Source: Mytilus galloprovincialis (lineage: Eukaryota). Taken from it: a DNA stretch of 64,000 bases. Both the position numbers and the translations under genes were made by a program. Each line of letters starts with the position of its first letter. Within the stretch, counting starts at the first letter, position 1. Shown here piece by piece: positions 4,890 to 40,016 of the stretch. Location of the stretch: assembly GCF_965363235.1 (NCBI RefSeq), contig NC_134847.1:70038935-70102934 (forward strand), read 5' to 3'. The notes beneath the pieces were generated by a model. The model saw only the letters and a list, made by a program, of their open reading frames with translations. It was not told the DNA's origin and did no database searches.

Positions 4890-5364
4890 AATAGGTTTTG
4901 CATATTTGGTGTATGGAAGGATTGTAATTTGAACATGTCCGACTGGCAGGTGTCATTTGACCTTGACCTAAATTTTATGGTTCAGTAGTTATGGGTAAGT
5001 TTATTTGTTTTTGTCTGTTTTCTTATACTGTATGCAGTATGTCTACTATATTTGGCGTATGGAATGATTGTAAGGTGTCCATGTCCAACTGGCAAATGTC
5101 ATCTGAAACCCCCAAATCCCCCATCTGACCCTGACCTCATTTCATGGATTAGTGGTGAAAGCTAAGTTATTGAGTCTTGGTCTTTTGTTTTAATACTATA
5201 TGCAACAGGTCAACTATATTTTGTGTATGGAGAACTTAATAACGTACATGTCAATCTCACAGGTTTTATTTGACCTTGATCTCATTTTCACAGTTCATTC
5301 CTCAGTGTTAAGTTTGTGTTTTGGTTTCTTTTTCTTAAACTATAAGCAATTGGTTAACTATATT
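4890..5364. repeat. ~175-bp tandem repeat (satellite-like), about 2.7 units. Further units lie at 6236-6400 and a diverged unit at 16440-16510.
   Basis: The motif tatatttggtgtatggaa...gtcatttgaccttgacctcattttcatggttcagtggt...gttaagtt recurs with a ~175-bp period. Confidence 0.55.
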
Positions 5365-6235
5365 CGGTCCTACTTAAAAGCGCCTGGGAAAAGAAAAAGC
5401 GCCCGGAGAAGAAAAATTAGCGCTCGGAGAAGAAAATAAGCGCCCGGGAGAAGAAAATAATAATATTTTTAACAATATTTTTTGTCCTTAAAAAATAACT
5501 AATCATTGCTTGTTTTGTCCTTAATGTAAATGGGGATATGTACGATCCTACATCTAAAGTGTGGTTGCACTTTTACATTTTAGATTTCAAAATTGTATGT
5601 AAGTAAGTAAATGGTGAACACTTTTTTATACAGATGCTGAGATAGATTTATTATATCTTTTTATAAAACTAAAACTGTTTCAATTGCTATGGTTATTAGG
5701 GTTTTAATGCTTAGACTTAAATTTAAACCAAACACCTGCTTTTTACCCCCTTGTTTTAACTACGGTACATGTATAGTACTGCTTTTTTTGCTGATTTATT
5801 ATGTGTACCTAATTTAATTAAAATTTATCTGTGAAATTTGAGTTGTCTTATACATTTTTCATTTAGATATCGTTTTTGAAAAACATGTCTTTTGATGTCT
5901 TACATGTTATAAATCTTCCGCATAAACTGATCCATTATTATCAGTCTTTCGAAATAGTATTCATATATTGTTAAAATTGAAATATTCATACTTGTTTTTG
6001 TGCTTTATTACAAATGTCTATTTTCTTAATTTGCAAATTACTTGTCTAAAATAAAAATAAATCATTGTCCACAACTTAACAAAGTTGTCTCATGTCAATA
6101 AAATATCTATATATTTTCCCCGGGCGCTTTTTCCGTTCCCTGGGCGCTATATTTTCTTCCCCGGGCGCTTTTTATGTTCCTAGGGCGCTATATTTTCTTT
6201 CCCGGGCGCTCCCGGGCGCATTTTAGTAGGACCCA
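5365..6235. mobile_element. Non-autonomous TIR element (~870 bp) inserted into a 175-bp satellite monomer. TIR is ggtcctacttaaaagcgcc.ggg, with subterminal 21-bp tandem repeats (agcgcccggagaagaaaat x4 at 5380-5460, reverse-complemented x5 at 6118-6230).
   Basis: 5363-5396 and 6208-6245 are reverse complements of each other. The satellite sequence resumes on both sides (..aactatattcgg | ..ccactatatttg), suggesting a TSD around ctatatt. The ~650-bp interior has no ORF. Confidence 0.5.
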
Positions 6236-7695
6236 CTATATTTGCTGTATGGAATGAATGTAAGCTGTACAAGTCTGCATTGCATTGTTTTTCTAACCTT
6301 CACCTCATTTTCATGGTTCATTGGTCAGTGTTAAGTTTTCTTGGTTATGTCTTTCTTTGAAATTACATGTATATGCATTGTAAGGGGAGGCAATTTATGA
6401 TCGCCGAGCGGAGCGAGGCAAAACATATTTGGACCTATTCCATGCAGAAAAGGATATTTTTTCAGGCCTTTTCCTTGTATGCAATGTACCTCCCAAGAAT
6501 ACACGACTTGTTAATTTTTTGTTACATTTCAATAAATATGCGCCTTGACTATATTAAAAATAGTTATAAACCAGAGTTAGATTACGTGTCCCGGTAGAGT
6601 AAGATTTGTTTTCGCTTTATCCTGCTTTATGACTATTTACAAGATAGTTTTACTTAAGTTTAGGGAAAATTTTGCAAAGACTTAAAATGAAAGCCCCCTG
6701 AATTTGGTCTTTTTTTTTTTTTTGGTTTATCCGGCTTATTATTAGGCTGTCCAAATCGAATTAATTTTGACTTCGTTTCAAAGACACAATTTTCAAATCT
6801 TAAAATGAAAATGCATACTCAATAACTCATAATTTTATCTATCAAGTTCAAATTATTAAAACGTAACAATGTTTGTATACACCAAAGAGTTTTATTCTGG
6901 CTTTGTCAAATGCTAAGGTGATTTTTTTCTGACTGGACGAATCCCATCTTTTTAGCACTTCTATGCATTCAATATCGCCAACATTGTCAATTCTATGTAT
7001 GCAGATGCAATAGTATTTGGTGGGAAAATTTTATGTGTGCAAAGGAGTTGAGTTGGGTCAGATCCAAATATTGAACACACCTGCATGAAATTATGATTAA
7101 CCACCTTTTTTTTAACTAACAACCAGCGCTATAAAAATTATGCATGTCTTGATCTTAACCATTTATTTTTTCTTTTCAGTGTTTTTTTTCTCCATTTTTT
7201 TCCGTGAGCCCGCAATAGGAGGCAACTGCCTTTATGCCTCTATGTAATTTACGGCCCTGGATACTTTAAGAAAAAATGGTTGATTTTACCTGGTTTTGTG
7301 GCTAGCCAAGCCTTTAATGACAATGCCAAATATAAAACTAAAATGATAACATTATGTGACAGGACTACATGTACAGTACAAATAAATGAAAGAACATTCA
7401 GGACAGAGAAATACACAAATAAACAATACAACAATACATTTCGACATGCTAATACTGTTATCAAAAGGTAACATAGTTGCAGATCAGCAGAATTATTTTA
7501 TTTAAAGGATAATTATATTAAAAGAACATTTGCACCAGTGACGCCTCTACAACATATTTTATCCACTGGATCACCAGCAGTATTATTCTTAATTGCCTCC
7601 AGGAGGAGAGTGTAAATAATATACATAATGAACAGAAATTAAACAATTGAACAAAATAGGCAAATTAAATCAGAAATGTCATGATTAGTTGCATA

Positions 7696-8564: not shown

Positions 8565-8660
8565 TTTTCAATTGGAGCTCCACTGGTGAGTCTTTTGTAG
8601 ACGAAACGGGCTCCTGGCGCAAATATAATATTACAATCCCGGTATCTATGATGAGTTTTT
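8565..8660 (+). ncRNA. Hammerhead-ribozyme-like motif carried by a short dispersed repeat, with a mutated core (CUGGUGA instead of CUGAUGA)
   Basis: ccaCTGGTGAGTCTTTTGTAGACGAAACgggctcctggcgcaaa...tatctatgatgagtt has an intact helix II (GUCU-uuugu-AGAC) and the GAAAC box. It is homologous to the copies at 47858-47960 and 62455-62560. Confidence 0.35.
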
Positions 8661-9087
8661 TTGAAAACGACATGCTGATTTTCGACATTTTTCAAAATTT
8701 CCCGGTTTTTAAACTTAAAAATCAAAACATGACATGATAATAAACATGATACTATTATTGCAACAATATAGAATATCAATAGTAAGCAAAACACCTAATT
8801 TCTAGTATTTTTTTTTCTTTTTTTTTCAGAAATTTATTGAAAATAAGAAACTCGCAAATTTGCGAGACTATAAACAAGGAAGGTATATAATTAAATCAAG
8901 GTTTGAAATTTGTCCTCTCAATGGTTAAAAGCCTATAGCGGGCTTTTCACCGAAAGAGTAGTACTACATATTCCACAGTAAGATGTACATTTATTTAGAA
9001 ATATAATATTGCTCTATTATCTGACGAATTTTTATTTTGTTTTTCAAGATAAACTAACGCGGAAGTATTATTATGATAAATAAAAAG

Positions 9088-9226
9088 TTCTGGACCCAAA
9101 TTTTTTTACAGTGTAATTTCACCCCCCTACTTGCAATTTGAGGCATTAAACATGGAGAAATAAATTTGGAAGTGGTAAAAAAATTAATGGCAAGTAACCC
9201 ACTGTCAACACTAGGGACTATATTCG
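9088..9226 (+). repeat. 139-bp direct repeat flanking the 1289-bp satellite block. The second copy lies at 15992-16130.
   Basis: ttctggacccaaatttttttacagtgtaatttcaccccc..ctagggactatattcg occurs on both sides of the array in the same orientation. Confidence 0.75.
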
Positions 9227-9272
9227 TGGAACAACGAAAATCAAGGGACGACAATTGTGGTCTCGGACCTAA

Positions 9273-12200
9273 TAGGATAGAAAGAGTTGATAAATCTTAT
9301 AACAACTTGGTATGACCAAAGCTTAAGAAATTATAACACTGCTTACAAAGTTTCATGACAATAGGATGTATATTAAAGACAATAAGTTAAGTTCTATACT
9401 CATCTTTGCGTGTAAAATTTTGACGTTAAAATTGAAAAATTTCAACTATCAACATTTGGGGCTTTAAAAATTAAAATATTGCAAAAAAATACTTTTTAAA
9501 TGCCTTAATAAATAACTTATCATGTGCTAAAAGCAATAGAGTACTCATTTGATTCATCAGACTTGGCATAATTATTCAAAAGTCAAATTTATATGAGCCT
9601 GCGCCTAAAAATTGAGGTTTTTCAATGAAGGGGGGCCTTACATGAAGATGTAGTATTTTCCAGCAATTTTAAACTTGTGAAGCTTTTTGGTTATAAATCA
9701 TCCTTACATATGTATTGAAAGTACTTTAAATGGAAAGAAAAGTTACAAATAACATATCATATTAGTTTAAAAGGGTCTTAGGGCAAGTAAGACTGGAAAA
9801 AAATTAGGGTCAATTTAGGCCGTGCACATATTTACATTTAAAAATGCAAATTGAGGCTATAAGAAATAAAAATTTGTGTCTTTTTTATCATTTCTATACT
9901 CATGTGACATGATACAACAAATCTGAGCACAAAAAGACTCTTGCAATTAACTTTTCTTACAAACAGTATGGTCTGATACAAAGATTTTTGCCTTTTTAGG
10001 GAAAAACTTGCATGCAATTTATTCTCAACAGGCTTATATTTAAACCACTTGCTATCCTACAGAAGAAAAGAAAGATATTATGTGAAATGGAACAGGTACA
10101 ATAGACATTTTAAAGTGCTTTTGATACAAATTTAGTGAGGTCTTTATTATGGACTTCAAATTTTATGTACCAAGCTCCCCACTTTTGACTTCATCCAAAC
10201 AGGGCGTTAGACAAGGGTCATTTATACAACACATTTTGCACATATTATCTGAGATAATCTTCTTTTCTGTAGATTCAGAGTTCATAAATAAGTAAAAGAA
10301 CTAGATAAAGGCATAGAAACACAAATATTGACACATGAAAACCTGTCAGATAGAAAGTCAGGATGCCATTTATGCATTAATATTGAAAAAGCTATAAATG
10401 CCTATTTTGAACATAAAATTCCAAAATTGGTCATTTTTGCAGAAATTCTATAAAATAAAAGTTTAAATTCTTTAGTTTCATGCTATTTGACAAATTGAAA
10501 CCATCAAATCATTTAGGGAAGTTGCCAAAGTACAGATTCTATATTTACAGATTTCACATCTTAGGATAGAAAGAGTTGATAAATCTTATAACAACTTGGT
10601 ATGACTAAAGCTTAAGAAATTATAACACTGCTTACAAAGTTTCATGACAATAGGATGTATATTAAAGACAATAAGTTAAGTTCTATACTCATCTTTGCGT
10701 GTAAAATTTTGATGTTAAAATTGAAAAATTTCAACTATCAACATTTGGGGCTTTAAAAATTAAAATATTGCAAAAAAATACTTTTTAAATGCCTTAATAA
10801 ATAACTTATCATGTACTAAAAGCAATAGAGTACTCATTTGATTCATCAGACTTGGCATAATTATTCAAAAGTCAAATTTATATGAGCCTGCGCCTAAAAA
10901 TGGAGGTTTTTCAATGAAGGGGGGCCTTACATGAAGATGTAATATTTTCCAGCAATTTTAAACTTGTGAAGCTTTTTGGTTATAAATCATCCTTACATAT
11001 GTATTGAAAGTACTTTAAATGGAAAGAAAAGTTACAAATAACATATCATATTAGTTTAAAAGGGTCTTAGGCCAGGTAAGACTGGAAAAAAATTAGGGTC
11101 AATTTAGGCCATGCACATATTTACATTTAAAAATGCAAATTAAGGCTATAAGAAATAAAAATTTGTGTCTTTTTTATCATTTCTATACTCATGTGACATG
11201 ATACAACAAATCTGAGCACAAAAAGACTCTTGCAATTAACTTTTCTTACAAACAGTATGGTCTTATACAAAGATTTTTGCCTTTTTAGGGAAAAACTTGC
11301 ATGCAATTTATTCTCAACAGGCTTATATTTAAACCACTTGCTATCCTACAGAAGAAAAGAAAGATATTATGTGAAATGGAACAGGTACAATAGACATTTT
11401 AAAGTGCTTTTGATACAAATTTAGTGAGGTCTTTATTATGGACTTCAAATTTTATGTACCAAGCTCCCCACTTTTGACTTCATCCAAACAGGGCGTTAGA
11501 CAAGGGTCATTTATACAACACATTTTGCACATATTATCTGAGATAATCTTCTTTTCTGTAGATTCAGAGTTCATAAATATAAGTAAAAGAACTAGATAAA
11601 GGCATAGAAACACAAATATTGACACATGAAAACCTGTCAGATAGAAAGTCAGGATGCCATTTATGCATCAATATTGAAAAAGCTATAAATGCCTATTTTG
11701 ACCATAAAATGCCAAAATTGGTCATTTTTGCAGAAATTCTATAAAATAAAAGTTTAAATCCTTTAGTTTCATGCTATTTGACAAATTGAAACCATCAAAT
11801 CATTTAGGGAAGTTGCCAAAGTACAGATTCTATATTTACAGATTTCACCTCTTAGGATAGAAAGAGTTGACAAATCTTATAACAACTTGGTATGACCAAA
11901 GCTTAAGAAATTATAACACTGCTTACAACGTTTCATGACAATAGGATGTATATTAAAGACAATAAGTTAAGTTCTATACTCATCTTTGCGTGTAAAATTT
12001 TGACGTTAAAATTGAAAAATTTCAACTATCAACATTTGGGGCTTTAAAATTCAAAATATTGCAAAAAAATACTTTTTAAATGCCTTAATAAATAACTTAT
12101 CATGTACTAAAAGCAATAGAGTACTCATTTGATTCATCAGACTTGGCATAATTATTCAAAAGTCAAATTTATATGAGCCTACGCCTAAAAATGGAGGTTT

Positions 12201-15200
12201 TTCAATGAAGGGGGGCCTTACATGAAGATGTAGTATTTTCCAGCAATTTTAAACTTGTGAAGCTTTTTGGTTATAAATCATCCTTACATATGTATTGAAA
12301 GTACTTTAAATGGAAAGAAAAGTTACAAATAACATATCATATTAGTTTAAAAGGGTCTTAGGCCAGGTAAGACTGGAAAAAAATTAGGGTCAATTTAGGC
12401 CGTGCACATATTTACATTTAAAAATGCAAATTGAGGCTATAAGAAATAAAAATTTGTGTCTTTTTTATCATTTCTATACTCATGTGACATGATACAACAA
12501 ATCTGAGCACAAAAAGACTCTTGCAATTAACTTTTCTTACAAACAGTATGGTCTGATACAAAGATTTTTGCCTTTTTAGGGAAAAACTTGCATGCAATTT
12601 ATTCTCAACAGGCTTATATTTAAACCACTTGCTATCCTACAGAAGAAAAGAAAGATATTATGTGAAATGGAACAGGTACAATAGACATTTTAAAGTGCTT
12701 TTGATACAAATTTAGTGAGGTCTTTATTAAGGACTTCAAATTTTATGTACCAAGCTCCCCACTTTTGACTTCATCCAAACAGGGCGTTAGACAAGGGTCA
12801 TTTATTCAACACATTTTGCACATATTATCTGAGATAATCTTCTTTTCTGTAGATTCAGAGTTCATAAATAAGTAAAAGAACTAGATAAAGGCATAGAAAC
12901 ACAAATATTGACACATGAAAACCTGTCAGATAGAAAGTCAGGATGCCATTTATGCATCAATATTGAAAAAGCTATAAATGCCTATTTTGAACATAAAATG
13001 CCAAAATTGGTCATTTTTGCAGAAATTCTATAAAATAAAAGTTTAAATCCTTTAGTTTCATGCTATTTGACAAATTGAAACCATCAAATCATTTAGGGAA
13101 GTTGCCAAAGTACAGATTCTATATTTACAGATTTCACCTCTTAGGATAGAAAGAGTTGATAAATCTTATAACAACTTGGTATGACCAAAGCTTAAGAAAT
13201 TATAACACTGCTTACAACGTTTCATGACAATAGGATGTATATTAAAGACAATAAGTTAAGTTCTATACTCATCTTTGCGTGTAAAATTTTGACGTTAAAA
13301 TTGAAAAATTTCAACTATCAACATTTGGGGCTTTAAAATTCAAAATATTGCAAAAAAATACTTTTTAAATGCCTTAATAAATAACTTATCATGTACTAAA
13401 AGCAATAGAGTACTCATTTGATTCATCAGACTTGGCATAATTATTCAAAAGTCAAATTTATATGAGCCTGCGCCTAAAAATGGAGGTTTTTCAATGAAGG
13501 GGGGCCTTACATGAAGATGTAGTATTTTCCAGCAATTTTAAACTTGTGAAGCTTTTTGGTTATAAATCATCCTTACATATGTATTGAAAGTACTTTAAAT
13601 GGAAAGAAAAGTTACAAATAACATATCATATTAGTTTAAAAGGGTCTTAGGCCAGGTATGACTGGAAAAAAATTAGGGTCAATTTAGGCCGTGCACATAT
13701 TTACATTTAAAAATGCAAATTGAGGCTATAAGAAATAAAAATTTGTGTCTTTTTTATCATTTCTATACTCATGTGACATGATACAACAAATCTGAGCACA
13801 AAAAGACTCTTGCAATTAACTTTTCTTACAAACAGTATGGTCTGATACAAAGATTTTTGCCTTTTTAGGGAAAAACTTGCATGCAATTTATTCTCAACAG
13901 GCTTATATTTAAGCCACTTGCTATCCTACAGAAGAAAAGAAAGATATTATGTGAAATGGAACAGGTACAATAGACATTTTAAAGTGCTTTTGATACAAAT
14001 TTAGTGAGGTCTTTATTATGGACTTCAAATTTTATGTACCAAGCTCCCCACTTTTGACTTCATCCAAACAGGGCGTTAGACAAGGGTCATTTATTCAACA
14101 CATTTTGCACATATTATCTGAGATAATCTTCTTTTCTGTAGATTCAGAGTTCATAAATAAGTAAAAGAACTAGATAAAGGCATAGAAACACAAATATTGA
14201 CACATGAAAACCTGTCAGATAGAAAGTCAGGATGCCATTTATGCATCAATATTGAAAAAGCTATAAATGCCTATTTTGAACATAAAATGCCAAAATTGGT
14301 CATTTTTGCAGAAATTCTATAAAATAAAAGTTTAAATCCTTTAGTTTCATGCTATTTGACAAATTGAAACCATCAAATCATTTAGGGAAGTTGCCAAAGT
14401 ACAGATTCTATATTTACAGATTTCACCTCTTAGGATAGAAAGAGTTGATAAATCTTATAACAACTTGGTATGACCAAAGCTTAAGAAATTATAACACTGC
14501 TTACAACGTTTCATGACAATAGGATGTATATTAAAGACAATAAGTTAAGTTCTATACTCATCTTTGCGTGTAAAATTTTGACGTTAAAATTGAAAAATTT
14601 CAACTATCAACATTTGGGGCTTTAAAAATCAAAATATTGCAAAAAAATACTTTTTAAATGCCTTAATAAATAACTTATCATGTACTAAAAGCAATAGAGT
14701 ACTCATTTGATTCATCAGACTTGGCATAATTATTCAAAAGTCAAATTTATATGAGCCTGCGCCTAAAAATTGAGGTTTGTCAATGAAGGGGGGCCTTACA
14801 TGAAGATGTAGTATTTTCCAGCAATTTTAAACTTGTGAAGCTTTTTGGTTATAAATCATCCTTACATATGTATTGAAAGTACTTTAAATGGAAAGAAAAG
14901 TTACAAATAACATATCATATTAGTTTAAAAGGGTCTTAGGCCAGGTAAGACTGGAAAAAAATTAGGGTCAATTTAGGCCGTGCACATATCTACATTAAAA
15001 AATGCAAATTGAGGCTATAAGAAATAAAAATTTGTGTCTTTTTTATCATTTCTATACTCATGTGACATGATACAACAAATCTGAGCACAAAAAGACTCTT
15101 GCAATTAACTTTTCTTACAAACAGTATGGTCTGATACAAAGATTTTTGCCTTTTTAGGGAAAAACTTGCATGCAATTTATTCTCAACAGGCTTATATTTA

Positions 15201-15719
15201 AACCACTTGCTATTCTTCAGAAGAAAAGAAAGATATTATGTGAAATGGAACAGGTACAATAGACATTTTAAAGTGCTTTTGATACAAATTTAGTGAGGTC
15301 TTTATTATGGACTTCAAATTTTATGTACCAAGCTCCCCACTTTTGACTTCATCCAAACAGGGCGTTAGACAAGGGTGTTTTATACAACACATTTTGCACA
15401 TATTATCTGAGATAATCTTCTTTTCTGTGGAGTCAGAGTTCATGAATAAGTAAAAGAACTAGATAAAGGCATAGAAACACAAATATTGACACATGAAAAC
15501 CTGTCAGATAGAAAGTCAGGATGCCATTTATGCATCAATATTGAAAAAGCTATAAATGCCTATTTTGAACATAAAATTCCAAAATTGGTCATTTTTGCAG
15601 AAATTCTATAAAATAAAAGTTTAAATCCTTTAGTTGCATGCTATTTGACAAATTGAAACCATCAAATCATTTAGGGAAGTTGCCAAAGTACAGATTCTAT
15701 ATTTACAGATTTCACCTTA
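9273..15719. repeat. Tandem satellite, monomer 1289-1291 bp, 5.0 copies, ~97-99% identical
   Basis: The unit start taggatagaaagagttgataaatcttataacaacttggtatgac recurs at 9273, 10562, 11853, 13142 and 14431. The array ends at ..gatttcacct 15717. No ORF is conserved across monomers. The array is bounded by inverted junctions gtggtctcggacctaatagg (left) and taataggtccgagaccacaatt (right). Confidence 0.9.
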
Positions 15720-16699
15720 ATAGGTCCGAGACCACAATTATTTCGTAGTGCATTTCTTTTAGAACATAAATGAAAATAAAAAAAATCCCACCTCGCTTTC
15801 TCAAAGAAACTTTTACAGTGTGTTGTACTACTTTTGGGACAAATTGTATCAAAATTATAGAAAACTTCATCGGCTTTAACCCAAAATATGGACAATTTTA
15901 TGTTTAGGGCGTCTTGAAATCTTTTGACAGCTTCCGAAGTGCTAATTTTCAACCTATTTCACCTTGACCAAATCACTACTTTCCTTTAAAATTCTGGACC
16001 CAAATTTTTTTACAGTGTAATTTCACCCCCTACTTGCAATTTGAGGCATTAAACATGGAGAAATAAATTTGGAAGGGGTATAAAAATTAATGGCAAGTAA
16101 CCCACTGTCAACACTAGGGACTATATTCGGACCAACTGTTTAGTATGCGGCACATATGTACAAATGTTTTTTATCTCACGTTTGCTGAAGCCGGGTATCA
16201 CCTGCATGTGTTGGTTTCAGAATGTTACCTGAGATAACATACTGAATGTGCAAAAAGATTTATGCAAATAGATACCTTAAAGATTCTAAATATTTATTAA
16301 TGTGCTTTCAATTTGCTATTGCTATGTTCAATAAGTAATTTTCTTTATTCATATAAATTTCCTCAAATATGTAAAACAACGTATACGCAATAACAGGAAA
16401 ACTGTACAAAATGTCCCAATGCTACAAACAAACAAAAAATGAAAAAAATACATGTTGTCATCTGACCGTGACCTCATTTTCATGATTCAATGATCTATGT
16501 TAACTTTTGTGTTTATGAAGAAGGTCTTTGCAACCAAGAGCATAGTAACGTGTTTGATAAAGTGCATACACTACAACTAAAGCCTCACCTTCAAAAGGAG
16601 CATACCTACTTTCAGCCAGACATAATTTTCAACCATCATTAAAACAGTTGGGGGTTTACTAGAGCACTGATAGTACTTCTGAATGAAGCAGTACATAAT

Positions 16700-16900
16700 T
16701 CAGTCAACAGACCAGTCGGTAGCTGGGCATGTCATACGAACAGGGTCATAAAGACGAACACCTTCCTTCATCTCCTGAATAATGATCTCTTTGGATTGGT
16801 GAAATACTTCATCTAGGTCATTTGTCCAGCAGAAGATTATTGGTGGTTTCAATAGAGCCCGAAATGGTTTTATTTCTCTTGCCATGGCAAATGCATATGC
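16700..16900 (-). CDS. Candidate coding exon or terminal exon of unknown identity on the minus strand, ..GFINQGAYAFAMAREIKPFRALLKPPIIFCWTNDLDEVFHQSKEIIIQEMKEGVRLYDPVRMTCPATDWSVD*
   Basis: Protein-like, non-repetitive ORF of mixed composition with no low-complexity stretches. It is not part of any repeat family seen in the window. Product not recognised. Confidence 0.25.
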   Translation of the reverse strand, partial: AYAFAMAREIKPFRALLKPPIIFCWTNDLDEVFHQSKEIIIQEMKEGVRLYDPVRMTCPATDWSVD

Positions 16901-17470
16901 TCCTTGGTTGATAAACCCAGAACAAGCTCTTGCACCAGGAATTTAAGATGCTGTTGGGAAGTTGCTTATTGCATCTTGGAAATTGGTACTTTGTCGTTTA
17001 TATGTTGGGTGTTCGCGAGTCCTTCAAATTTTACATTGTCTTGAGTAAATTGAAACTTCCTCAGGTTTAATGTAATACTATTACAAGCACACACGTCAAG
17101 CCCTTAGATTTCGCTTCTTGAAATAAAAGACTTTATTTTGCAGAGTATATTAATCATGTATATTGGTTTTTAAAACTATCTTTTAAGGCAGTTTGCATAT
17201 GTCTATGGACATTCTCTTGTAAACTATTTTGCAAGGCTATTTTGCTGATTTCTGATTAAATGCATTCAACAGAATGTACAATATTATATTCTACTCTAAT
17301 AACAGTTACAGTATGCATAAGATGAGCTTAAACATTTTTACTTTTCTATTGTAGGCAAAAAGACCATGGTATCATATGTAAATAGGGGAATTGACTGTCT
17401 GATTTTCGTGATCTGTTAGGAATTGAACGAAAGAACATCCGTGGAGATACAAGATTCATACAGTTTTCAC

Positions 17471-18969: not shown

Positions 18970-20488
18970 ATGGCACGCCGTTATTATATTTATTCAATTT
19001 CGAGATATCTTATTTAGTTAAATAAGATATCTTATAAACTAATTGAGATATCTTAATAACAAAATGAGATATCTTATATATTAATTGAGATATCTGATTT
19101 ATTAAATAAGATATCTGATTTATTAAATAAGATATCTTATATATTAAATAAGATATCTTATTAAAATGTTTATAAAGATATCTTATTAAATATATAAGAT
19201 ATCTTATTTAAAATATAAGATATCTTATTAATTAATAGAGATATCTTATTAACTTATAGAGATATCTTAAAAACTAATAGAGATATCTTATAAACTTTTA
19301 GAGATATCTTATTAACTTATAGAGATATCTAATTAACTTATAGAGATATCTAATTAACTTATAGAGATATCTTATAAACTAATAGAGATATCTTATAAAC
19401 TTTTAGAGATATCTTATTAACTTATAGAGATATCTAATTAACTAATAGAGATATCTTATAAACTTTTAGAGATATCTTATTAACTTAAAGAGATATCTTT
19501 TTTAATTGGTTATACAGATATCTTATTTAATATATAAGATATCTCCATAAGTTAATAAGATATCTTTATTAGTTTATAAGATATCTCTATTAATTAATAA
19601 GATATCTCTATTAGTTTATAAGATATCTCTATTAATTAATAAGATATCTTATATACTTTATAAGATATCTTATTAATTAATAGAGATATCTTATTAACTT
19701 AAAGAGATATCTTATAAACTAATAGAGATATCTTATAAACTAATAGAGATATCTTATAAACTAAAAGAGATATCTTATTTACTTTCAAATTAAATAAGAT
19801 ATCTTATAAAGTATGTATTTAAAAGATATCTTTATAAAGAAGTAAGATATCTTATATACTTTATAAGATATCTTATTAATTAATAGAGATATCTTATTAA
19901 CTTATAGAGATATCTTATAAACTAATAGAGATATCTTATAAACTTTTAGAGATATCTTATTAACTTATAGAGATATCTAATTAACTTATAGAGATATCTT
20001 ATAAACTAATAGAGATATCGTATAAACTTTTAGAGACATCTTATTAACTTAAAAAGATATCTTATTTAATTGGTTATAAAGATATCTTATTTAATATATA
20101 AGATATCTCCATAAGTTAATAAGATATCTCTATTAGTTTATAAGATATCTCTATTAATTAATAAGATATCTTATAAAGTATGTATTTAAAAGATATCTTT
20201 ATAAAGAAGTAAGATATCTTATATACTTTATAAGATATCTTATTAATTAATAGAGATATCTTATTAACTTATAGAGATATCTTATAAACTAATAGAGATA
20301 TCTGATAAACTAATAGAGATATCTTATTCACTTTCAAATTAAATAAGATATCTTATAAAGATTAAAGATATCTTATAAAAATTAAAGATATCTTATAAAA
20401 ATTTAAGATATCTTAATACTTAATAAGATATCTTGTTAAATAAATAAGAAATCTTCAAATTTGAATAAATATAAAAACGGCGTGCCAA
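18970..20488. mobile_element. Non-autonomous DNA transposon (~1.5 kb) with ~30-bp TIRs ((a/t)tggcacgccgtt.ttatatttattc) and an 8-bp TSD AGATGGGT (18962-18969 and 20489-20496). The TSD length is hAT-like.
   Basis: The left terminus atggcacgccgttattatatttattc and right terminus gaataaatataaaaacggcgtgccaa are reverse complements. An identical 8-mer, agatgggt, immediately flanks both ends. Confidence 0.55.
18995..20460. repeat. AT-rich minisatellite of ~21-bp units built around the palindrome AGATATCT (e.g. agagatatcttattaacttat), with a ~370-bp higher-order periodicity. It fills the interior of the TIR element.
   Basis: Dozens of (a/t)agatatct(t/a) cores occur at ~21-bp spacing. Longer blocks recur at 19790/20158 and 19826/20200. 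Confidence 0.85.
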
Positions 20489-24229: not shown

Positions 24230-24480
24230 TGTCAAACTTTTCTATTTTGTACATGGAGATATCGTGTCACCAAATCTCCTTGCACTATGCCCGACGCGCT
24301 AGACCACTACACTACCTGGGGTCTACAATAATAAAGGTTTCGGTAATGGGTTGTTACCTTTCCTCATCTTTTTTTTTTTATCTAGCGTCATAATACACTA
24401 CATGATATATAAGGCATGCAGATGAAATCTTTTTTATCTAGCGTCATAATACACTACATGATATATAAGGCATGCAGATG
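24230..24480 (-). repeat. tRNA-derived SINE copy (ccaggtagtgtagtggtctagcg...) whose tail carries an exact 47-bp tandem duplication (24366-24412 and 24413-24480 region). A second family member lies at 24690-24830.
   Basis: Same family as the inverted pair at 63340-63860 (gcccgacgcgctagaccac..., ccgggattc.aa..c..gctactga.a.atcgtg.cacc). The repeated block is ttttttatctagcgtcataatacactacatgatatataaggcatgcagatgaaatc. Confidence 0.55.
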
Positions 24481-25596
24481 AAATCTTTACAGACCAGCAA
24501 AATTATCTATCGTAGAGGATCTCACAAATTAAGGTAGGATGCAGTCACATAATTATAATATAAGTACGTCTGCACCAGTGACAACTCTACGCCAAATTTT
24601 ATTCATCGGATCACAAGTGATGGTGATACGAGGTTAAAAATACATTCTGTATATATAATTTGTCCAACAATGTTAGATCTTCAAATTTTCCGTTCTTCTC
24701 TGACCGGGATTCAAATTCTTGCTACTGAAAAATCGTGTCACCTATTCTCAGTGCACAGCGCCCGACACTCTAGACCACTCGACCACATAGGCTCTACAAT
24801 AGCAAAGCTTTTGAAACTTTATTGTAGAGCATATATTTATATATAATTCGTCTAAAAACAGCACAACAAGGTAAGAACTGTTAATTTGTGGAAGCAAATT
24901 TTTTTATTCTTCCCTGGCTGTATGTATAAAGAAAATGGTGTGTTTTATCATATTTTTTTTAAAATACAGAATATTTTTATTTGATTCATTTTTTTCTTCA
25001 ATTTTGCAATTCAACATGTCAAAGAGTTGATAACTTTTATATGTCTGCCATTTACTCATATTACTTATCATAATGTGGACCGCTCATTGTTATTGAATTT
25101 CCCTCCCTTTTTTGTCATGCAACACTGAATAAATATAAGTCTCAATCAAGGCAATATATTGTTGTCCAAATTCTGTTAACATCAGCTGATATTTTCAATT
25201 TTTACTCCATAGTTATCTATTTTGATTTTGTTCGGGATTGACACATTTCATAATTCTGTAATAAGTTAAATAATGTTTAATTAAGTCTTTGAGAACCAAA
25301 GTAAGATACTTTATATTAATATTCTTGTACTTATTATAAAATACATCAAAAAACATGTGTAGAAACTTGATCTTGATTAATTTGCAATGTTTAGACATTT
25401 ACCTGTGACGTTATTTTTTGTGGCGTTGATCCATTTATGTGACAGACACATAGTATGTTATTCTATTAAGCTGTTTTATGTACTGTCCTATAATAATTGT
25501 TGTTTTTCCTTGTTATTCTGTGGTTGACATGTCAAAATGTAATATTATATTATTTATTTATGTACACCTCTGTCTGTGATGTTTTTGCATTTATTT

Positions 25597-27505: not shown

Positions 27506-29136
27506 ATGAATGAATTTATGTTTGCAGATGTTTTATCAGAATTACCTGATAGTCTTGTGAAAGAGATGTTGAAAAAGAAAAAAAATGATGATGTATGTCT
27601 TGATGAAGGAGTTATATCAGAAGTACCTATGTTTCCTGTAATAGATGAAAGTGAAATGGGGACTTCTACAGAAATCAATGATGATGAAAAGGAGAATGAA
27701 AAAAATGATGAAATTGTATTCGAGAGTTTGGACCTTTCGGAAATCACCAATAGTAGTTATTGTAGTTGTTCTATAAATAAACAATATGAAGACAAATATT
27801 TGTACAAAGAAGACCAAATAGTTTACTTGCCTAATACCGTAGAAGCAACAATAAACAAAGACAAAAAGACTGATATCCATAAAGAAATTTCTGTCAACAG
27901 TAGTTCTTTAAAAAGCTCTAAGGTAAATGAAATGTATGATTCTTCGGCTTTGTCCATGATTGACTTACCACCTTTGTCAATGGATGACTTTGAAGAAAAA
28001 CAAGACGGTAGTTTCACTAAGAATGGTAGTTTTTTACGGTTGTGTACTGAAACATCTATCAACAGGGTTTCAGAGGTAGACACTTATGTTTCACATGTAG
28101 GTCATTGCACAGGTCACTATGAGGATAATTCTATCAGAGAAAACAAGGTATGGTGGGTTCCTAATTATCAAATCATACCAATTACAAAGAATGATGCGGT
28201 ATACAGTTCTGATAAATTATCACAAGCTTTTGACAGTAACAAGAGTGAAAAAAGCAACATTTCAACTATAAGTTCCGGATGCTGTAGTATAATCAGTAAT
28301 AAACTGGATGTTCATATTTGTCAATATAAATGTCTATCCTCAAACGTACATTTTGAAGAGTCTGTTTTTTCAAACAAGGGCGTAGTTGATCTACAAAAAA
28401 GGCAAGCAAATAAATCAATAAATAAAAAATATTCTAATGGAGAAGAATATTTACAGAAATGTAGAAAACATCATGATATTGCTAAGATTGTAAAAACCAC
28501 TTTGAAAGAGTTAGCGATGAAAAGGGTAACTGAAATAACTTTAACATCAAAATGTAATCGAAAGAAAAAAAAGCGAAGGATATCAAGAAGAAAACTTCGA
28601 CGCATTATATTTTCTAATCGAATTAAATCATCAAGGTCTCTTCAAATACAAGTAAGACCTGTTGAACATTCACCTCAGCTAATAACAACTTCTAGTGAAG
28701 CAAACACTAGTCATCCAAATCACAATGGAACAATTTTGAGTCTACAACAACAAATTTCAGTTCAAAGTGTATTACCAGTTCACAATATGTCAAATTATAT
28801 CAGAACTGATGGGTCATCTGATTTGGTCACCGGGTCATCATTCACAACGCCATCTGTGACATCTTCAAGTTCTTGGACTAGCTACCTCAATAGTTTGTCG
28901 ATGGGATATGAATACAGTGTTGAGAAAAAGATGCAGTACGAATGGCTGAGAGTACAATCTTACCAGAATTTTCCAGCTACCTGCCATGCTAGTCCCTTAC
29001 GTTTAGCTAGAGCTGGTTTCTTCAGTACTGGTATTATTGATGAGGTTTTATGTTTCAGCTGTGGGGTCAAATACAAAAACTGGAAGAAAAAGGATAATCC
29101 TATTGAAGTTCACCATAGAATATCGCCAGATTGTCG
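27506..29136 (+). CDS. IAP-family exon 1. A 544-aa ORF with a long acidic, Ser-rich N-terminal region, a basic NLS-like stretch (KCNRKKKKRRISRRKLRRI) and a C-terminal BIR domain complete through its last zinc-ligand Cys.
   Basis: ..YEWLRVQSYQNFPATCHASPLRLARAGFFSTGIIDEVLCFSCGVKYKNWKKKDNPIEVHHRISPDC matches the BIR signature R.x.T/S-F-x-x-W/F-P...AGF.Y.G..D.V.CF.C-x16-H-x6-C. The ORF ends at the donor TGTCG|gtaaat, phase 2, and TAA follows if the donor is not used. Confidence 0.8.
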
Positions 29137-30178
29137 GTAAATATTTGTTGTAAAATTATTGAAGATGGTTTTTTTTTTAATTTCTGTATTTTACTTATAA
29201 TGAACTTTTATTTTCTACAGAAAAGTTAGGTCTATTTTTATTTAAGACTTATATATATATATATACTTCTTTATGCTCAAATCAAATGCAAAAGGACAGT
29301 ATCCAAAGCTAATTTGGGCATTTTTTGTTTTCCTCATTTTTCATATTTCTTTAAATGTGTTTTGCAATTAATTTTAATTAAGATACAGTCTGGGGTTAAT
29401 TTAGGCATTACTTCAACTTGGAATGTCGTGGAATGTTTTGAAACTTGGAAAGAAGTGGATGTGTCTGCTCACCAAAAACATCTGAATAAATAAGTTTGAT
29501 TTGATTTTCTTTGGAAGTCAGCATAAAACTTTTACATATACACTTGCATCAGCTAGAGAATGCATTCTATAGAACCCCTTATGTTTTTCTGTGTAATGGT
29601 TAACTTTCGTTTTAAATTTTGCTTAATGATCAATATAAACAGTTTCATAATTTTATCACAATCTTAGTTATTTCAATTTGAATGTCAACTAAATTTGGTC
29701 TGTTGAAAAATGTTATGGAGTACTACATTAATAGCAGGTTCTAAAGTACTTTAGATGATATGTTAACTGTATTTTCTGTAAGGCTATCTGGCAGGGCCTA
29801 TTCTTATCTTGACCTGATTTTCCTTTACCATCTCTGGGCTCTTTGACTGCTTCCTTCACCAATAAAAACTACTTGCCACGAAATAGCACAGTAGTTTTTA
29901 AAGTGGCGTTAATAAAACAAAATCAACCAATCATTTATCAGTGATGATGGTAAGTTTTTGCAATTCAAGTATTATAAGACCTTGATCTTCAACATAAAAT
30001 TGATTTATAATTAATAGAACTGCAACGTTTATTTCTTAGTGATCTCTTTAATCACCTTTTGCAGAGCTTAGTTACACAATATGATAATAAATTGGTCCTT
30101 TTGATGATATAGCTTTTTAGTCTCAAGCTTTGCTAAGCAACACATTGTATTTGAATAAAACAATTTTGTTTTTGATAG

Positions 30179-33260: not shown

Positions 33261-35989
33261 AACATACAATGTAATACCATTATAAAAAAAATTGTTGTCT
33301 TATAAAAATTGTCACTTGACCAACAGAAAAACCTTACATTTTGTGTACGTCCAATGCATTATTGGACTTGATTTAAGCAAATGACCCTTAGATTCAAGTC
33401 CCTAATATCACTTACTATTGTCAGCGGACCAGATAATCTATCCCACTTCATACAACAATCCTGTTTCCATTGTGGCATCAGTTATTTTGTATTGTGAAGT
33501 CAAAATTTTACAGCAACCTGGGTGATGTCCAGTCATGGCAGACAAATAGCAAAAAGATGTTTAGGAAAACATGACCTAAAACCTCCTTCATATAAGACAC
33601 AAATACATGGAAACCGAATCTTGCTGCTTTAAAATAAGGGTAAAAAGATGAAGTCTTTTTAACTTAAATAAAGGGTGGGGGGTCATTACCATAAGAACAA
33701 CTTTTCTAAAAGATGATTCCACATATATTCATTGTATTTTCAATGAATTATAAATATTGAAGTGTATCTCAGGCATCTGAGAAAAGACTATTGAATTGAA
33801 TCGGTACATCTATACATTTTTGTTCAGGGTCAATCGACATCAATTTGTTGGCCTCTCTAATAGACGTCCAATTTTTAGCTTCTCGAATTGACGTCAGGTT
33901 TATGGCCATATGAAAAGATCCAAACGCCGAGATATTTGGCCTGACATGCTGCATTACATATGGAAATGTCCAAAACAAATTAACAACACTGCAAATTGGG
34001 ACTGAAAAGATTTATACATGTTATACCAACTGAAACTTCGACTGTCTGAGAGAGATGTAAAGACAGTTCTAGGTTAATATGTTCACAACAAATGAAAACT
34101 TTAAATTTGTTGAAAAATATCTAACGAAGTCCAAATTATAATACTCTCAAAAAAGTTAGCTTTACATCTTTATTTTGTCCATTGTTGAAGACTGATTGCT
34201 GCCCTCTATGTGTCCTATATGTCGTTTTGTTTTCTTTGTCATTGGGTCCTGATTGACATATACTCGCATGTAATTTATCAATGTGAATATAAATGAAATT
34301 CGTTAACGTAGAACGACCTTACCCCCTCCCCGTCCTTTTCTAGATAACAATAAGGATGGGGTGGGGGTGTACCTTCGAGTGTATCTCCTTATTTCTTGAT
34401 AGTACTACTGTGATAGTACTATCTACTGTGATAGTAGAGTTTGTTATATCTTTACAACGTCATTACTAGAATTTCAAACTTCTATGACTATACATGTACA
34501 TGTATATATTCGTTTTGTTATTGGTAAATTCGATATGGCAGTATGGTATTTGCGGAATTCCAACGTAAATGCCACGAGTCAATTGAGATATAAAGTATCA
34601 TAAAATTGAGCTGTGTTCATTAAGAAACACATACAAATATACGTTTATCATACAACTCAAAATGTAAACAACCCCTAAAATACAATGTTATATGGAATCG
34701 TCCAACATACATTTATCATACGACTCGAAATGTAAACAACCCCTAAAATACAATGTTATAGAGAATCGTCCATAGCAGATGAAAGACATAGAATTCACGA
34801 ATACACGTCCAAATAATTATGACGTCTTGGAAGGCTATTTCTTCCTGTCGAAGTAAGGCGTCAAAGAAAAAAAATATAATAGCCTTTCAAGATGTCATAA
34901 TTATTTGGACTATCAGTTGGTATGACTGACATTAGATGAAATAAAAATAGATATGTCAGCTAATAAAATATTCAATAGTTTTTTGTTGGTTGAAATGTCC
35001 TGAAATGTGATGGGTTTATGCAGCACATGTATCCCTTTACCAGTTTACTGGCTTCAGTTTGAAAAATAGACTACAGTAGAGACTAAATGGGGACTAAATG
35101 TGTACAAACCAGACATCCAACTATGTTGTAGAAAATGTGATCATCAATTTATCAAAAATATATACACAGAGAACAATATATTTCACAATACATATGCATT
35201 AATCCAAATTTACATCCATTCGTACGGTCTCAATAGAAGAATTTCCCGCGGAAATATCATGTGATATAAACATGGAATTTTCCACACCGATACAGGTGAA
35301 ATACGTAGAATAACAATTGTGGACACAGCAATGAGATCAGATATAAGACCCTCATGAGCTCGGTGTAAAGTAAAAAAAATGTAAAAATCAATTATTAAAT
35401 AAATTTGTTCGATTAACCTTGAAGTGAAGACTAATAAAAATTTGCGTGTATAGAGTGAGCCCCCTAAATTAAATAATACTGTGTTCTTGACGACTTCCCA
35501 CCGCGATGATCGATAGAAAAGATATTTTACTATATAGTATGTTAAATAATAAAAAAATGAACCTTATACTTTCAGACACGATTTTAAGAGAAAACATTCA
35601 ATTCTCTTTTATATATTTTTACATATTTCAGACTATTAATCTTTCAGATAACAAATATCGTGCAAAGTTAGTAATCTCATAGCAACAGTCATAGGAATAC
35701 ATAATCTTTTGTTTTTGCTTAATAGATAATACAAATTATAGATAATACAAATTGTCTGATAGTATTATGTTTTTGTAGTCAAAATCGAATTTAATGATTA
35801 TGTTAACAAATAATTAATTAATAATAAAATTCAAATTAAGCTTCAGACTGAAGACAGATTTAACTATTTGGTTAAATTGAATTATTTCTTTTATTTCCTG
35901 CAATTTTACCTATTATTACTTCAACAAATAAAACTAACTTCCTTGATATAATTCTTATTCTTACTTTGATTTAGATCTCCTGATATCAG

Positions 35990-36531: not shown

Positions 36532-38791
36532 GTAATAACAATAAATTAAATCTAATCATAAAAGGTGATACTTTTATCCCACATTGAACATGAAATATGC
36601 ATCATGTTTTTTATTTAATTCCAAACTTGGGAATTCAGTCTTTTTCAGCAAAATTTAATAAAAACAGTACCTATTTCGTGTAATCGATTCCTCCATCAGA
36701 TTTCAACCCTATACATTGAACCTTCACACATATATTGCACAAGTTTTGAAGTTTTGTAGTTTTTATGGAATTGTTTGAGTGTTGCTATATTTTTCTGAAT
36801 GTAAGAAAATAGTCATATTTCTGCAAAGTCTACAAATCAAAATGGTACCAATTGTGTATAACAGAATGATTGCATTTATTTTATATTATTGTAGCTGTGC
36901 ATTTCTATTTTGTAATTATTTGATCAAGTAAGATGAGCTGGTTCATAGCATTCAACAGTAATGTCATTATTACATGTTTGTGTCACAAAATGACTGAATG
37001 AAATAGCTGAACAAATATCAATGTGACAACATTTACAGAAAATGAGTTCATAAAGGAAAAAAAAGAAGAAGAAAAATGATATGATTGATTTGCATTATTC
37101 ACTGTGAGGGTTAACAGTTGCTTTAACATTTAAAAAATGTTATCGGGCCTTAATATATTTCAAGTTATTTAATTTGTCATTGGTTATCTTCTTTTACAAT
37201 TTAAAGTACAAAGTTATTTCCCCTCAACTTTGCAAAATTTGTGTTGGAACAACATTATTTTTGTAGCAAAGTTAATTTTTTATTCAAATCGTGAGCTTGA
37301 AAAAAAAAATTTGTCTAAGTTTTCAACATGAACCAAAGCGCTTTGAAAATACATAAATATTTGGAATGTAACTTGCGGTCATGATGGTTTCACTGAAACT
37401 TTTATGTCTGAGAAATGCAGGCTATCATTTTGGTTAAACGAAAGACTGACTTATCTTTAAAAGAGCTTATAGTGTACTCTTATAAAGCGATTCCCATTGC
37501 CTCACATTGGGGCTTTGAAAGATATCCATTTATGATGAGATTGTGACCTTTATTTTTTAATATGTATGCTCTTTTTTCCGTTTGAATGGTTTTACACTAG
37601 TCATTTTTTGAGCCCCTTTGAAGCTTGCTGTTCGTGTGAGCCAATGCTCCATGTTGAAAACTGTACTTTGACCTATAATGGTTTACTTTTACAAATTGTG
37701 ACTTGAGCAACATGAGCAACACGACGAGCGCCACGTGTGGATCACCTGAAATCCTCCATAGTTTTTGGTAGGGTCCATGTTGTTGTTGTACCCCTATTTG
37801 TGACAGTTTGTTCACTCATCATTGTCAATTTAAGGGAAATTGATGCGACTGTCGTACAAGTGGTTTATTTAGGTGTTATACCACCATTTATTTCCCCTAT
37901 TAGTCTTTGTCTCCCCTTATTTAACTGGTGTATATGCTTTACTATCCACGTAACCTCAACTATACACAATATTCTATAGGAAACCCAAATAAAAACAATA
38001 ATGGTGTTGTGAAATACCCAAGACAAATGTTAATGAAACAGAATTGTTTTACTGCAATAAAATATAAGGATTAGTTACCTACAACTGTCAAATTAAAGGG
38101 AATATTTTTTTACCTATGTTCGTATAAAACCGGATGTGACGTACCATGCTTTAGTGGTATTACACCTTTGGCGCTATACAACCAGATTCAATCCACCATC
38201 TTCTACATTTGAAAATGTATGTCAGGTATGATAGTTGTTGTCCATTCGTTTGATATATTTTATCATTTGATTTTGAAATTTGATGAGGGACTTTCCGTTT
38301 TGAATTTTCCTCGGAGTTCAGTATTGTTGTGATTTTATATTTTGGATGGAAAGTTGTCTCATTGGACATTTTGAAAAATTAATAACATCCACCATTGTTA
38401 TAGCAAAACATAGAATTTTGGGTCTAACAAATTATAAAAGCAATTAATTTGTTTAAGCATTTATTTTTATGATGAATATGATATCTCGAAGAAATAAGTT
38501 TAAATAAACTTTTGAAAAGAGAAAAGGCCTAACCTCTCCATTTGACAAGTGACAATCCATTGAAAAATATAGTTTATGTCACTTTGATTAATACTTTTCA
38601 AATACTTAGGGAAAACACTAAAACAATATCCATCTGCTAATTATTATCTCCCATGAAACTGGTGGATGTATCGTTCCTCGTACAGTCAGAATGTTGGCAG
38701 GCGACAAGTTTTAATCATAATGTGACTACCAGAATATGAAGTCTTACAGGTTCAATATTGATATATTTAAAACTATCATTGTCAATTTCAG

Positions 38792-38918
38792 GAGGCATCT
38801 AATAATTCATCAGATATTACTGAGAATCACACAGCAGTGTCAAATTATGGCGCAATCGAAGATAGAATCTACATAAACTCAGAAGAAACAACACCAACAC
38901 CAATGACCACTCAATCAG
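38792..38918 (+). CDS. IAP linker exon (module B, copy 1), 127 nt: EASNNSSDITENHTAVSNYGAIEDRIYINSEETTPTPMTTQS
   Basis: Acceptor tgtcaatttcag|GAG, phase 0. Donor CAATCAG|gtagat, exits with 1 base. Identical copy at 42653-42779. The diverged but ORF-preserving copy at 45677-45803 supports coding status. Confidence 0.6.
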
Positions 38919-39636
38919 GTAGATTACTAAATAACCCATTTTGTTGTAACAAATAAACAATAAATGTCATGGGTAAGTTCTACAAATTAAATAAGCAAGA
39001 AGCAATCATGGGCTATTAAGAATTCCACTGTGAAATCCCTGTGTTTGATTGGTGTTGAATGGGAACGACATTTTGCCTTTCAACAGGCCACCTACAGACC
39101 ACTCAAAGTGTTCTTGGGTCAGCACATTGAAACCGACGGGAGCTGGTTGTAATTTATAAAATATTGAAAGAGAGAAGGAAAAAAAAAGTTCACATATGAA
39201 AATGAATTCATCATACAAATGAAATGACAAGCGATTTCACCCTTAGAGCAATGGTATATATTTGATCCCACAGAGGAAAGAAATGCATTGTGTTACCAAA
39301 ATATATTCTCTTGAATAAATTACACATGTGTGTCAGCACAGTAGTTTATTTGATGATATTGAACATGTTTTAATTCTTGCAATTGTTCCTTCATGTAATG
39401 TTCTTTTTTACAATCAGCATCCTAAAACGTAATTGTCTAGAGTGTTGAAATATTGTCAAACACGTGTTGCAGTGGTAACCTCTATATGTCATGCTAGTAT
39501 ATAGACGTAAATAAAGTCGGATAAAAACTAATAAAAATGTATACAACTTGTATACAAGTATAGGTTCTGTTAACAATTACTCAATTTTAACTCTAAATTT
39601 AAGATTTCCTGCAATTTACAATACATCAAAATGAAG

Positions 39637-40016
39637 ATGTAAGTATTCAGACAACTGAAGGAGCCATAAACAGATCATTCACTAGAGAAGACATACAAAT
39701 CTCCAATGATGCAGACACTACTTCTCAGTCATTAAATCGAACACAGCAACCTCATGTAGTTCACCATGCAATGAGACCATCAGTAGTTGACAGAAACCGT
39801 TCTGTTTTAGATGGAGAACAGAACAGAACTGAAGATAAAAGCAAGGCAGAGGATTTGGGTATCAGTTTAGAAACACCAAAATGTCAAGATTATGCTCAGC
39901 TGAATGACAGGGTCAGTACATTTCAATGTTGGCCTGGATATTTAGACCAGGCACCAAGGTTTTTTTTATATACAGGATACAATGATCATAAAGGCGATAC
40001 TTTTATATCATATCAA
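39637..40016 (+). pseudogene. Degenerate BIR-like exon (module A*, copy 2). It keeps RVSTFQCWPGYLDQAPR..FFLYTGYND but lacks the CxxC/His/Cys zinc ligands. An open frame runs to a GTATGT donor, so it could be a pseudo-exon or an alternative exon.
   Basis: Relative to copy 1 it has a 15-bp in-frame deletion (DMALA). After YND, ~100 bp are replaced by ~330 bp that includes atcataaaggcgatacttttat, which resembles the intron just 3' of exon A. The candidate acceptor GAAG|AT and donor TATCAA|gtatgt keep phases 1 and 0. The 3' BIR remnant at 40299-40396 is left in an incompatible phase (gctgaatg|gt). Confidence 0.5.

Follow-up and report, generated by a model that had tools for sequence, protein, structure and literature searches.

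In-place amplification as the probable origin of a five-copy 1289-bp array within a dispersed composite repeat of Mytilus galloprovincialis

The HINE, pearl, and DTC84 elements of bivalves are non-autonomous and Helentron-derived, and mostly hold five or fewer copies of a 140- to 180-bp repeat between their flanks (PMC7492417, PMC3879986, PMC4067079). These flanks carry subterminal inverted repeats (subTIRs), a microsatellite, and a 3' palindrome, and insertion takes place at T-rich sites without target duplication (PMC7492417, PMC3879986, PMC4067079). In HINEs, the 5' subTIR lies 2-4 nt from the 5' terminus and the 3' subTIR 38-60 nt from the 3' terminus (PMC4067079); a short palindrome or stem-loop is found 8-35 nt from the 3' end, and the microsatellite is in the left flank (PMC7492417, PMC4067079). 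Junctions of satellite DNA (satDNA) at palindromes have already been documented in molluscs (PMC5139131). In Xenopus, the Scalvenzi & Pollet model of miDNA4 and the Xstir repeat describe an element of the MITE type (miniature inverted-repeat transposable element) with an internal unit that has short direct repeats on either side, is found singly or arrayed, and grows through events driven by microhomology; microhomology-flanked internal units, single or arrayed within elements bounded by inverted repeats, are an established route to satDNA (review PMC12628747). Here we analyze a 64,000-nt stretch of the eukaryote Mytilus galloprovincialis (contig NC_134847.1, positions 70,038,935 to 70,102,934; hereafter the window), in which a repeat block at 9084-16136 holds five tandem copies of a 1289-bp monomer between inverted junctions and direct repeats. 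An earlier reading of the sequence (the original prediction) had taken this block for satellite cargo packaged in a composite mobile element. We find it more probable that one monomer was amplified in place, seeded by microhomology, within a dispersed non-coding Mytilus composite repeat of 1.75 kb.

The repeat finder resolved the array at 9270-15722 as 5.00 head-to-tail units of 1289 bp on the forward strand, as originally proposed. Pairwise alignment and variant sites delimit monomer 1 (9270-10558), monomer 2 (10559-11849, with a private AT insertion), monomer 3 (11850-13138), monomer 4 (13139-14427), and monomer 5 (14428-15722, including an altered right junction TTAATA). The start-to-start spacings are 1289, 1291, 1289, and 1289 bp, the monomer lengths 1289, 1291, 1289, 1289, and 1289 bp, and the pairwise identities 98.06-99.61%. 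The predicted inverted junctions are also present: arms of 22 nt at 9253-9274 and 15718-15739 are 95% complementary, and their sequence GTGGTCTCGGACC occurs only at these two array junctions in the 64 kb, where 0.15 occurrences (with up to 2 mismatches) are expected by chance. Direct repeats bracket the block, as had been stated, at 9084-9226 (143 bp) and 15988-16129 (142 bp); they are neither 139 bp long nor identical, being 97.2% identical with 3 substitutions and 1 indel, and weak homology continues beyond the second one for ~7 nt, to 16136. Two finer points of the original description did not hold. The arm core GGTCTCGGACC, said to be palindromic, forms only a 4-bp stem with a 3-nt loop (-1.1 kcal/mol) and folds no better than 24 of 200 shuffled sequences. 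Nor does the array simply begin right after the arm, since monomer homology shares ACCT with the arm and picks up again at TAGG, which places the arm tip within the duplication junction. No further copy of the monomer, the direct repeat, or the arm was found elsewhere in the window.

A second locus was obtained by scanning public metagenome contigs with the 19-nt arm, which returned one contig, L002 (ENA ORXM01016273, 3646 bp). Its label is "marine metagenome", but the contig evidently holds nuclear repeat DNA of a bivalve (mussel-like), with 93-95% identity to the window block, and represents host or larval DNA inside a metagenome assembly. On its minus strand, L002 begins with 85 bp of unrelated flank, followed by the right arm GGTCCGAGACCACAATT, the right spacer of the window, the direct repeat, a 26-nt linker, the left arm AATTGTGGTCTCGGACC, TAATAGG, one monomer, and CACCTCTTA; the whole series is then repeated a second time, and a third begins. 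The tandem period is 1747/1748 bp, and the inverted repeats of this contig are 24 nt long and 88-92% complementary; across the copies, the arms range from 17 to 24 nt. A 451-bp module bounded by both arms thus alternates in L002 with a single monomer, and the unit of the family comprises the module and a monomer of ~1297 bp including junction bases. The same ordered parts stand head to tail at the longer period in L002, and the sub-unit copies of the window cluster together, as in a composite (higher-order) tandem repeat.

The stretch of the window homologous to L002 is exactly 9084-16136, and the pieces that flank the array on the left and right match the two halves of a single, uninterrupted module of 451 bp. 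The left piece (9084-9269, forward strand, like the other parts of the block) is the 3' part of the module, with the direct repeat at 9084-9226, the 26-nt linker, and the left arm; it corresponds to ~267-451 of the L002 module at 95-97% identity, and its homology begins abruptly at 9084. The left arm AATTGTGGTCTCGGACC (9253-9269) and its self-palindromic tip TAATAGG together span 9253-9276 and are kept in both L002 units. The right piece (15723-16136) consists of the right arm GGTCCGAGACCACAATT (15723-15739), also conserved in L002, a 248-bp spacer, and the second direct repeat; it matches module positions 1-417 at 95% and is cut ~35 nt short of the module's own left arm. The window therefore contains the 3' 186 bp of one module, five monomers, and the 5' 414 bp of the next module. 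Since L002 has right spacer, direct repeat, and left arm in one unbroken stretch, the direct repeats of the window are successive truncated copies of the module (one unit plus 143 bp), and they are not transposon ends, long terminal repeats (LTRs), or a target duplication. An LTR or terminal-repeat retrotransposon in miniature (TRIM) origin was separately rejected: the direct repeats have neither a TG start nor a CA end, no purine tract precedes 15988, the flanks ATAAA and GACCA do not match as a 4-6-bp target duplication would, and the would-be LTR is internal to the L002 module. A 143-bp target duplication and piggyBac or PIF target duplications were dismissed on sequence grounds as well.

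The co-occurrence of monomer, inverted junction, and direct repeat at a second locus, with one monomer there and five in the window, answers in part the check that accompanied the original prediction and shows that the array is truly tied to flanking modules and is not a bare heterochromatic satellite. It would also be expected if the array were cargo between the conserved modules of a non-autonomous transposon, either a HINE/pearl element or a MITE with internal repeats, and if the cassette had been moved by a Helitron/Helentron or a terminal-inverted-repeat (TIR) transposase encoded elsewhere. The conservation of the 17- to 24-nt inverted arms across copies is in line with such an origin, as is the shortness of the array, because bivalve HINE/pearl elements typically hold no more than 5-6 repeats between their conserved flanks. 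We nevertheless consider mobilisation as a cassette unlikely. The left and right flanks are contiguous in L002, where the unit itself is tandem, and the outer boundaries differ between the loci: the window starts and ends in mid-module, whereas L002 starts at or near an arm. No target duplication was seen, and none of the boundary sequences (AATAA-AAAGTT, CCAAC-TGTTT, and AGATCT-GGTCC, hyphens marking the breaks) is a T-run. The direct repeats differ from each other by 2.7%, as much as they differ from the L002 copies (2.7-5.1%), and the five monomers arose locally. The cargo reading of the original prediction is thus borne out in part: the tie to flanking modules stands, whereas neither the bracket nor mobilisation as a unit has support.

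The checkable hallmarks of HINEs and Helitrons are likewise absent. The arms stand directly against the array, whereas subTIRs would be set back by 2-4 nt from a 5' terminus and by 38-60 nt from a 3' terminus, and the sequence outside the arms is conserved family sequence, not host flank. No microsatellite was detected in 9084-16136 by TRF, no T-rich target was seen at the boundaries, no 3' palindrome was recognised (no 3' terminus being definable), and the L002 unit has no internal repeat beyond the 17-nt arms. The 1289-bp monomer, which has no internal sub-repeat, contrasts with the 140- to 180-bp repeats of HINEs. No phase of the unit yields the ends of a canonical Helitron (5'-TC ... CTRR-3', a GC-rich hairpin ~10 nt before the 3' end, A/T insertion, and a Rep/Hel partner). 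The monomer contains no open reading frame (ORF) longer than 64 aa, no open frame of the block had a Pfam match, and neither Rep/Hel nor any other ORF was found. The search for structured RNA returned no Rfam family at the gathering threshold or at E<=1 and no tRNA. Concatenated open frames of at least 45 aa from the monomer, direct repeat, and spacer had no match among 5.8 billion proteins; neither viral contigs nor prokaryotic genomes gave a match in pattern scans with the arm, monomer, and direct repeat; and a full-text literature search for the arm sequence gave unrelated primer matches only.

Sequence distances separate the age of the array from that of its setting. Monomers differ by 0.4-1.8% within the window, by 5.9-7.5% between the window and L002, and by 8.4% between the neighbouring pair of monomers in L002; the five window monomers share a state that sets them apart from both L002 copies at 20 sites. 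Modules differ by 2.7-5.1%, and the two direct repeats of the window, 2.7% apart with one additional indel, are as distant from one another as from the L002 copies (2.7-5.1%). From the distances of monomers and direct repeats it follows that the arrangement of module plus monomer is old and that the five-copy array arose recently, by local amplification of a single monomer; it was neither built from old neighbouring units nor bracketed by repeats that an insertion had made.

The variants also carry a record of how the array grew. When polarised with L002, 12 of the 38 variable sites are common to two to four monomers and include the nested groups 3+4, 3+4+5, and 2+3+4+5. Each window monomer further has 2-10 private variants, with 10 private derived changes in monomer 5, and monomers 3 and 4, 0.4% apart, form the youngest duplicate pair. 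Judged from these sites, the pattern fits stepwise unequal exchange with gene conversion better than a single rolling-circle burst. Private variants in every monomer also speak against a mis-expanded or mis-collapsed repeat in the assembly, as does the presence of the same junctions in the independent assembly of L002; nothing specific favours such an artefact beyond the general proneness of long near-identical repeats to assembly errors, and we regard it as extremely improbable.

The junction sequences indicate where the first duplication would have taken place. At the left junction, the window and both L002 units read GGACC-TAATAGG(A/G)TAG, with monomer 1 retaining the ancestral TAATAGG start found in L002 (GGACC followed by TAATAGGATAG). 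The right junction of L002, seen in two monomer-to-arm copies, is TTCACCTCTTA followed by GGTCCGAG, while the third arm copy, at the left end of the contig, adjoins unrelated flank. The four internal junctions of the window read TTTCAC(C/A)TCTTAGGATAG and share the form TTTCACCTCTTAGGATAG (four occurrences), or CACCTCTTAGG followed by ATAG. In each, the sequence of the right junction runs as far as CTTAGG and there passes into that of the left junction, starting at ATAG; the crossover lies within T..TAGG, and the shared ACCT precedes it. An imperfect 10-bp direct repeat (ACCTNNTAGG; copies ACCTAATAGG and ACCTCTTAGG, 8/10 matching) lies on the two sides of the segment. This repeat exists because the tips of the inverted arms are self-palindromic (CCTA-A-TAGG; CCTAATAGG and CCTCTTAGG), and an inverted repeat with a self-complementary tip reads also as a direct repeat.

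We infer the following recombination steps for the in-place amplification of the monomer. The ancestral unit of ~1748 bp would have comprised a 451-bp module, bounded by the 17-nt inverted arms (GGTCCGAGACCACAATT ... AATTGTGGTCTCGGACC), and a segment of ~1290 bp, and the starting state at the locus would have been one 1289-bp segment between two truncated modules. The self-palindromic tips would have placed the imperfect direct repeat (ACCTAATAGG ... ACCTCTTAGG) on either side of this segment, and a microhomology event between the two sites, by replication slippage or template switch or by unequal exchange, could have created a second copy in tandem, joined to the first at CACCTCTTAGG-ATAG. 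From there, the array may have grown step by step to five through unequal crossing-over and gene conversion among the 1289-bp copies. The position of the microhomology accounts both for the whole number of copies and for the clean inverted junctions, which the original prediction had taken as signs of mobilisation, and packaging is not required. The array itself is most likely neutral.

Several observations weigh against this account. The right junction of the window reads CACC-TTAATA-GGTCC instead of the ancestral TCTTA form, with CTTAGG replaced by the TAATAGG that follows the left arm; this requires an extra small templated change or conversion that in-place amplification does not predict. 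A short templated repair patch would give such a junction, as would re-insertion of the array into an arm-arm palindrome with a 7-bp duplication. Some of the common variants (1+3+4+5, 2+3+4, and 1+5) conflict with any single tree, and the order of the amplification events therefore cannot be reconstructed. The start of the L002 array at, or within 11 nt of, the outer end of an arm is a hint that the role of the arms may not be purely passive. Transposition or a segmental duplication may, moreover, have brought the whole block to its site, either earlier or later than the amplification, and the comparison rests on two loci, one of them a contig from a metagenome assembly.

The altered right junction bears most directly on a scenario in which the 1289-bp segment left the chromosome as an extrachromosomal circle, closed at CACCTCTTAGG-ATAG, and the arms stayed behind, joined as a palindrome (AATTGTGGTCTCGGACCTAATAGGTCCGAGACCACAATT); the circle was then copied, by rolling-circle or break-induced synthesis, and a multimer went back into the middle of the palindrome. 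Arms joined without the array would fold as a hairpin with an 18-bp stem (-21.3 kcal/mol, z = -9.3), and TAATAGG on both sides of the window array resembles a 7-bp duplication, so that, unlike in-place amplification, this route accounts for the odd right junction; the whole copy number would also agree. However, a monomer between arms is the ancestral state of the family, as L002 shows, and insertion is unnecessary. The variants are not star-like, given the 12 of 38 sites common to subsets of monomers; an extra deletion followed by re-entry at the same site would be required; and there is no direct evidence of circles. We hold this sequence of events to be improbable. A concatemer of a CRESS or other rolling-circle replicon was considered separately and rejected, as the internal junctions have no hairpin.

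The arms bear on a further alternative, in which the 451-bp module is a MITE that entered a pre-existing 1.29-kb satellite, after which the two were amplified together; the window array would then be either a part of the original satellite that the insertion had spared or the product of transposase cuts at the facing ends of two modules. The arms have the form of TIRs: they are 17 nt long (24 nt including the tips) and perfectly matched (17/17) in module 1 of L002. TA stands beside both outer ends of the arms in the repeated units, although these are all copies of one ancestral junction, and the only independent boundary of a module, at the left end of L002, is CT-GGTCC, not the TA-GGTCC that a target duplication of the Tc1/mariner type would give. 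The L002 array starts at, or no more than 11 nt from, the outer end of an arm, which has a chance of ~1-2.5% for a random break in the 1748-bp unit, and three independent breakpoints (the two sides of the window junction and the L002 array start) all lie at arm outer ends. On the other hand, removal of the module and one TA would give CACCTCTTAATAGGATAG, where CACCTCTTAGGATAG is observed, a discrepancy of 3 nt. No solo module was found in the window or in the viral and prokaryotic scans, and the window monomers, all descended from a single copy, are younger than the module-containing units. An inserted MITE is an improbable source of this arrangement.

That all breakpoints seen sit at arm ends is weak evidence, as read from these few sequences, that the arms may be recombination-prone or may be TIRs recognised by a transposase. 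If a transposase did recognise the 17-nt arms as functional ends of a 451-bp MITE-like module, it could have cut where the ends of two adjacent modules face each other (alternative or "reversed-ends" transposition), released or duplicated the 1289 bp between them, and left the TA-microhomology end-join CACCTCT-TA-GGATAG as a footprint. This would explain the position of the three breakpoints, which chance does not readily do; we give it a low probability. If true, neighbouring MITE pairs would directly seed new long-monomer satellites in mussels.

The window has ~31% GC and only three ORFs of at least 150 aa. A 544-aa ORF at 27506-29140, with a BIR domain, is 100% identical to part of XP_076079288.1 (LOC143049571, M. 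galloprovincialis; on a 91-Mb chromosome). An exact look-up of this RefSeq protein yielded no record, and a Logan contig with the 544-aa exon spans just 3 kb, which does not extend to the array. When this protein was mapped onto the window, the first coding exon of the IAP-type gene was placed at 23769 on the forward strand, ~7.6 kb downstream of the repeat block, and its exons are spread over 23769-59498 on the same strand. Within the gene (38789-45823), an exon pair is tandemly duplicated with a period of ~3861 bp (38789/42650 and 39603/43464) at 99-100% identity at the protein level, and a diverged third copy lies near 45674; the protein thus contains repeated segments. Short tandem duplications occur at 24374-24488 (a perfect 56-bp unit, 2.1 copies) and 34639-34772 (a 68-bp unit, 2 copies at 92%), and 106/56-bp tandem repeats are present in 2.5-3 copies at 61118-61491.

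Closer to the block, a decayed pol fragment of an LTR retrotransposon (the end of the reverse transcriptase and RNase H) lies on the reverse strand at 16518-17100; it is frameshifted and has 60-78% identity to Mytilus pol proteins. This remnant stops 380 bp from the array and has no continuation left of it, so no empty site could be reconstructed, and a search with concatenated flank ORFs matched retrotransposon pol proteins only, with no allelic contig and no empty site. A minisatellite with 17% GC occupies 19002-20332 (21-bp unit GAGATATCTTATTAACTAATA, ~63 copies, 79% match) and is followed by related 20/40-bp repeats as far as 20434. On the left, two short arrays of a 20- to 21-bp GC-containing repeat (AAGCGCCCGGAGAAGAAAAT) stand inverted at 5383-5474 and 6093-6184 in a foldback-like structure with 92-nt arms, 74% complementary, and 618 nt between them, bracketed by a 41-nt direct repeat (5045-5085 and 6235-6275, 85%). 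A stretch on the right side of the array, 16450-16517, has similar sequences at 5259-5321 and 6292-6349. A dispersed repeat of ~90 bp, probably a fragment of a short interspersed element (SINE) or MITE, occurs three times in the window (8571-8663, 47862-47950, and 62463-62554) at 79-80% identity.

Taken as in-place amplification, the locus offers a clean, datable snapshot of a new tandem repeat arising from a segment of an older composite repeat. It also illustrates that a truncated higher-order repeat can be the source of direct repeats around an array with inverted junctions, and that such repeats are not necessarily the sign of a mobile cassette. The locus implies neither a function nor a phenotype; we infer this absence of function together with the mechanism.

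Compared with the bivalve HINE, pearl, and DTC84 elements, the locus shares a bivalve host, short arrays between modules that bear inverted repeats, palindromic motifs at the junctions, and a copy number that varies by locus, and it extends the theme of short arrays tied to such flanking modules from a ~160-bp to a 1.3-kb monomer. It differs from them in having no T-rich or TT insertion site and no AA duplication at the boundaries seen, and in having flanks that are contiguous at the other locus. Classical heterochromatic satellites reach hundreds of copies or more, whereas the arrays seen here comprise five copies and two units and, in the window, lie near a gene. Macrosatellite-like composite repeats provide a structural parallel in the 1748-bp head-to-tail unit, the re-amplification of a sub-segment by unequal exchange, and the abrupt ends that differ by locus; they differ from the present arrays in that the latter are very short, with more than two units in L002 and one unit plus five sub-units in the window. 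The closest mechanistic analogue is the MITE-internal-satellite model of miDNA4 and Xstir. As in those repeats, the sequence is non-coding and its context is bounded by inverted repeats, and the unit has microhomology at its flanks, which can drive internal duplication or deletion, and is single at one locus and a short array at another. In contrast to miDNA4 and Xstir, the unit measures 1289 bp, and neither termini, target duplication, nor independent insertions were shown here; the sequence outside the arms is also conserved and stands in tandem with the monomer as a 1748-bp unit.

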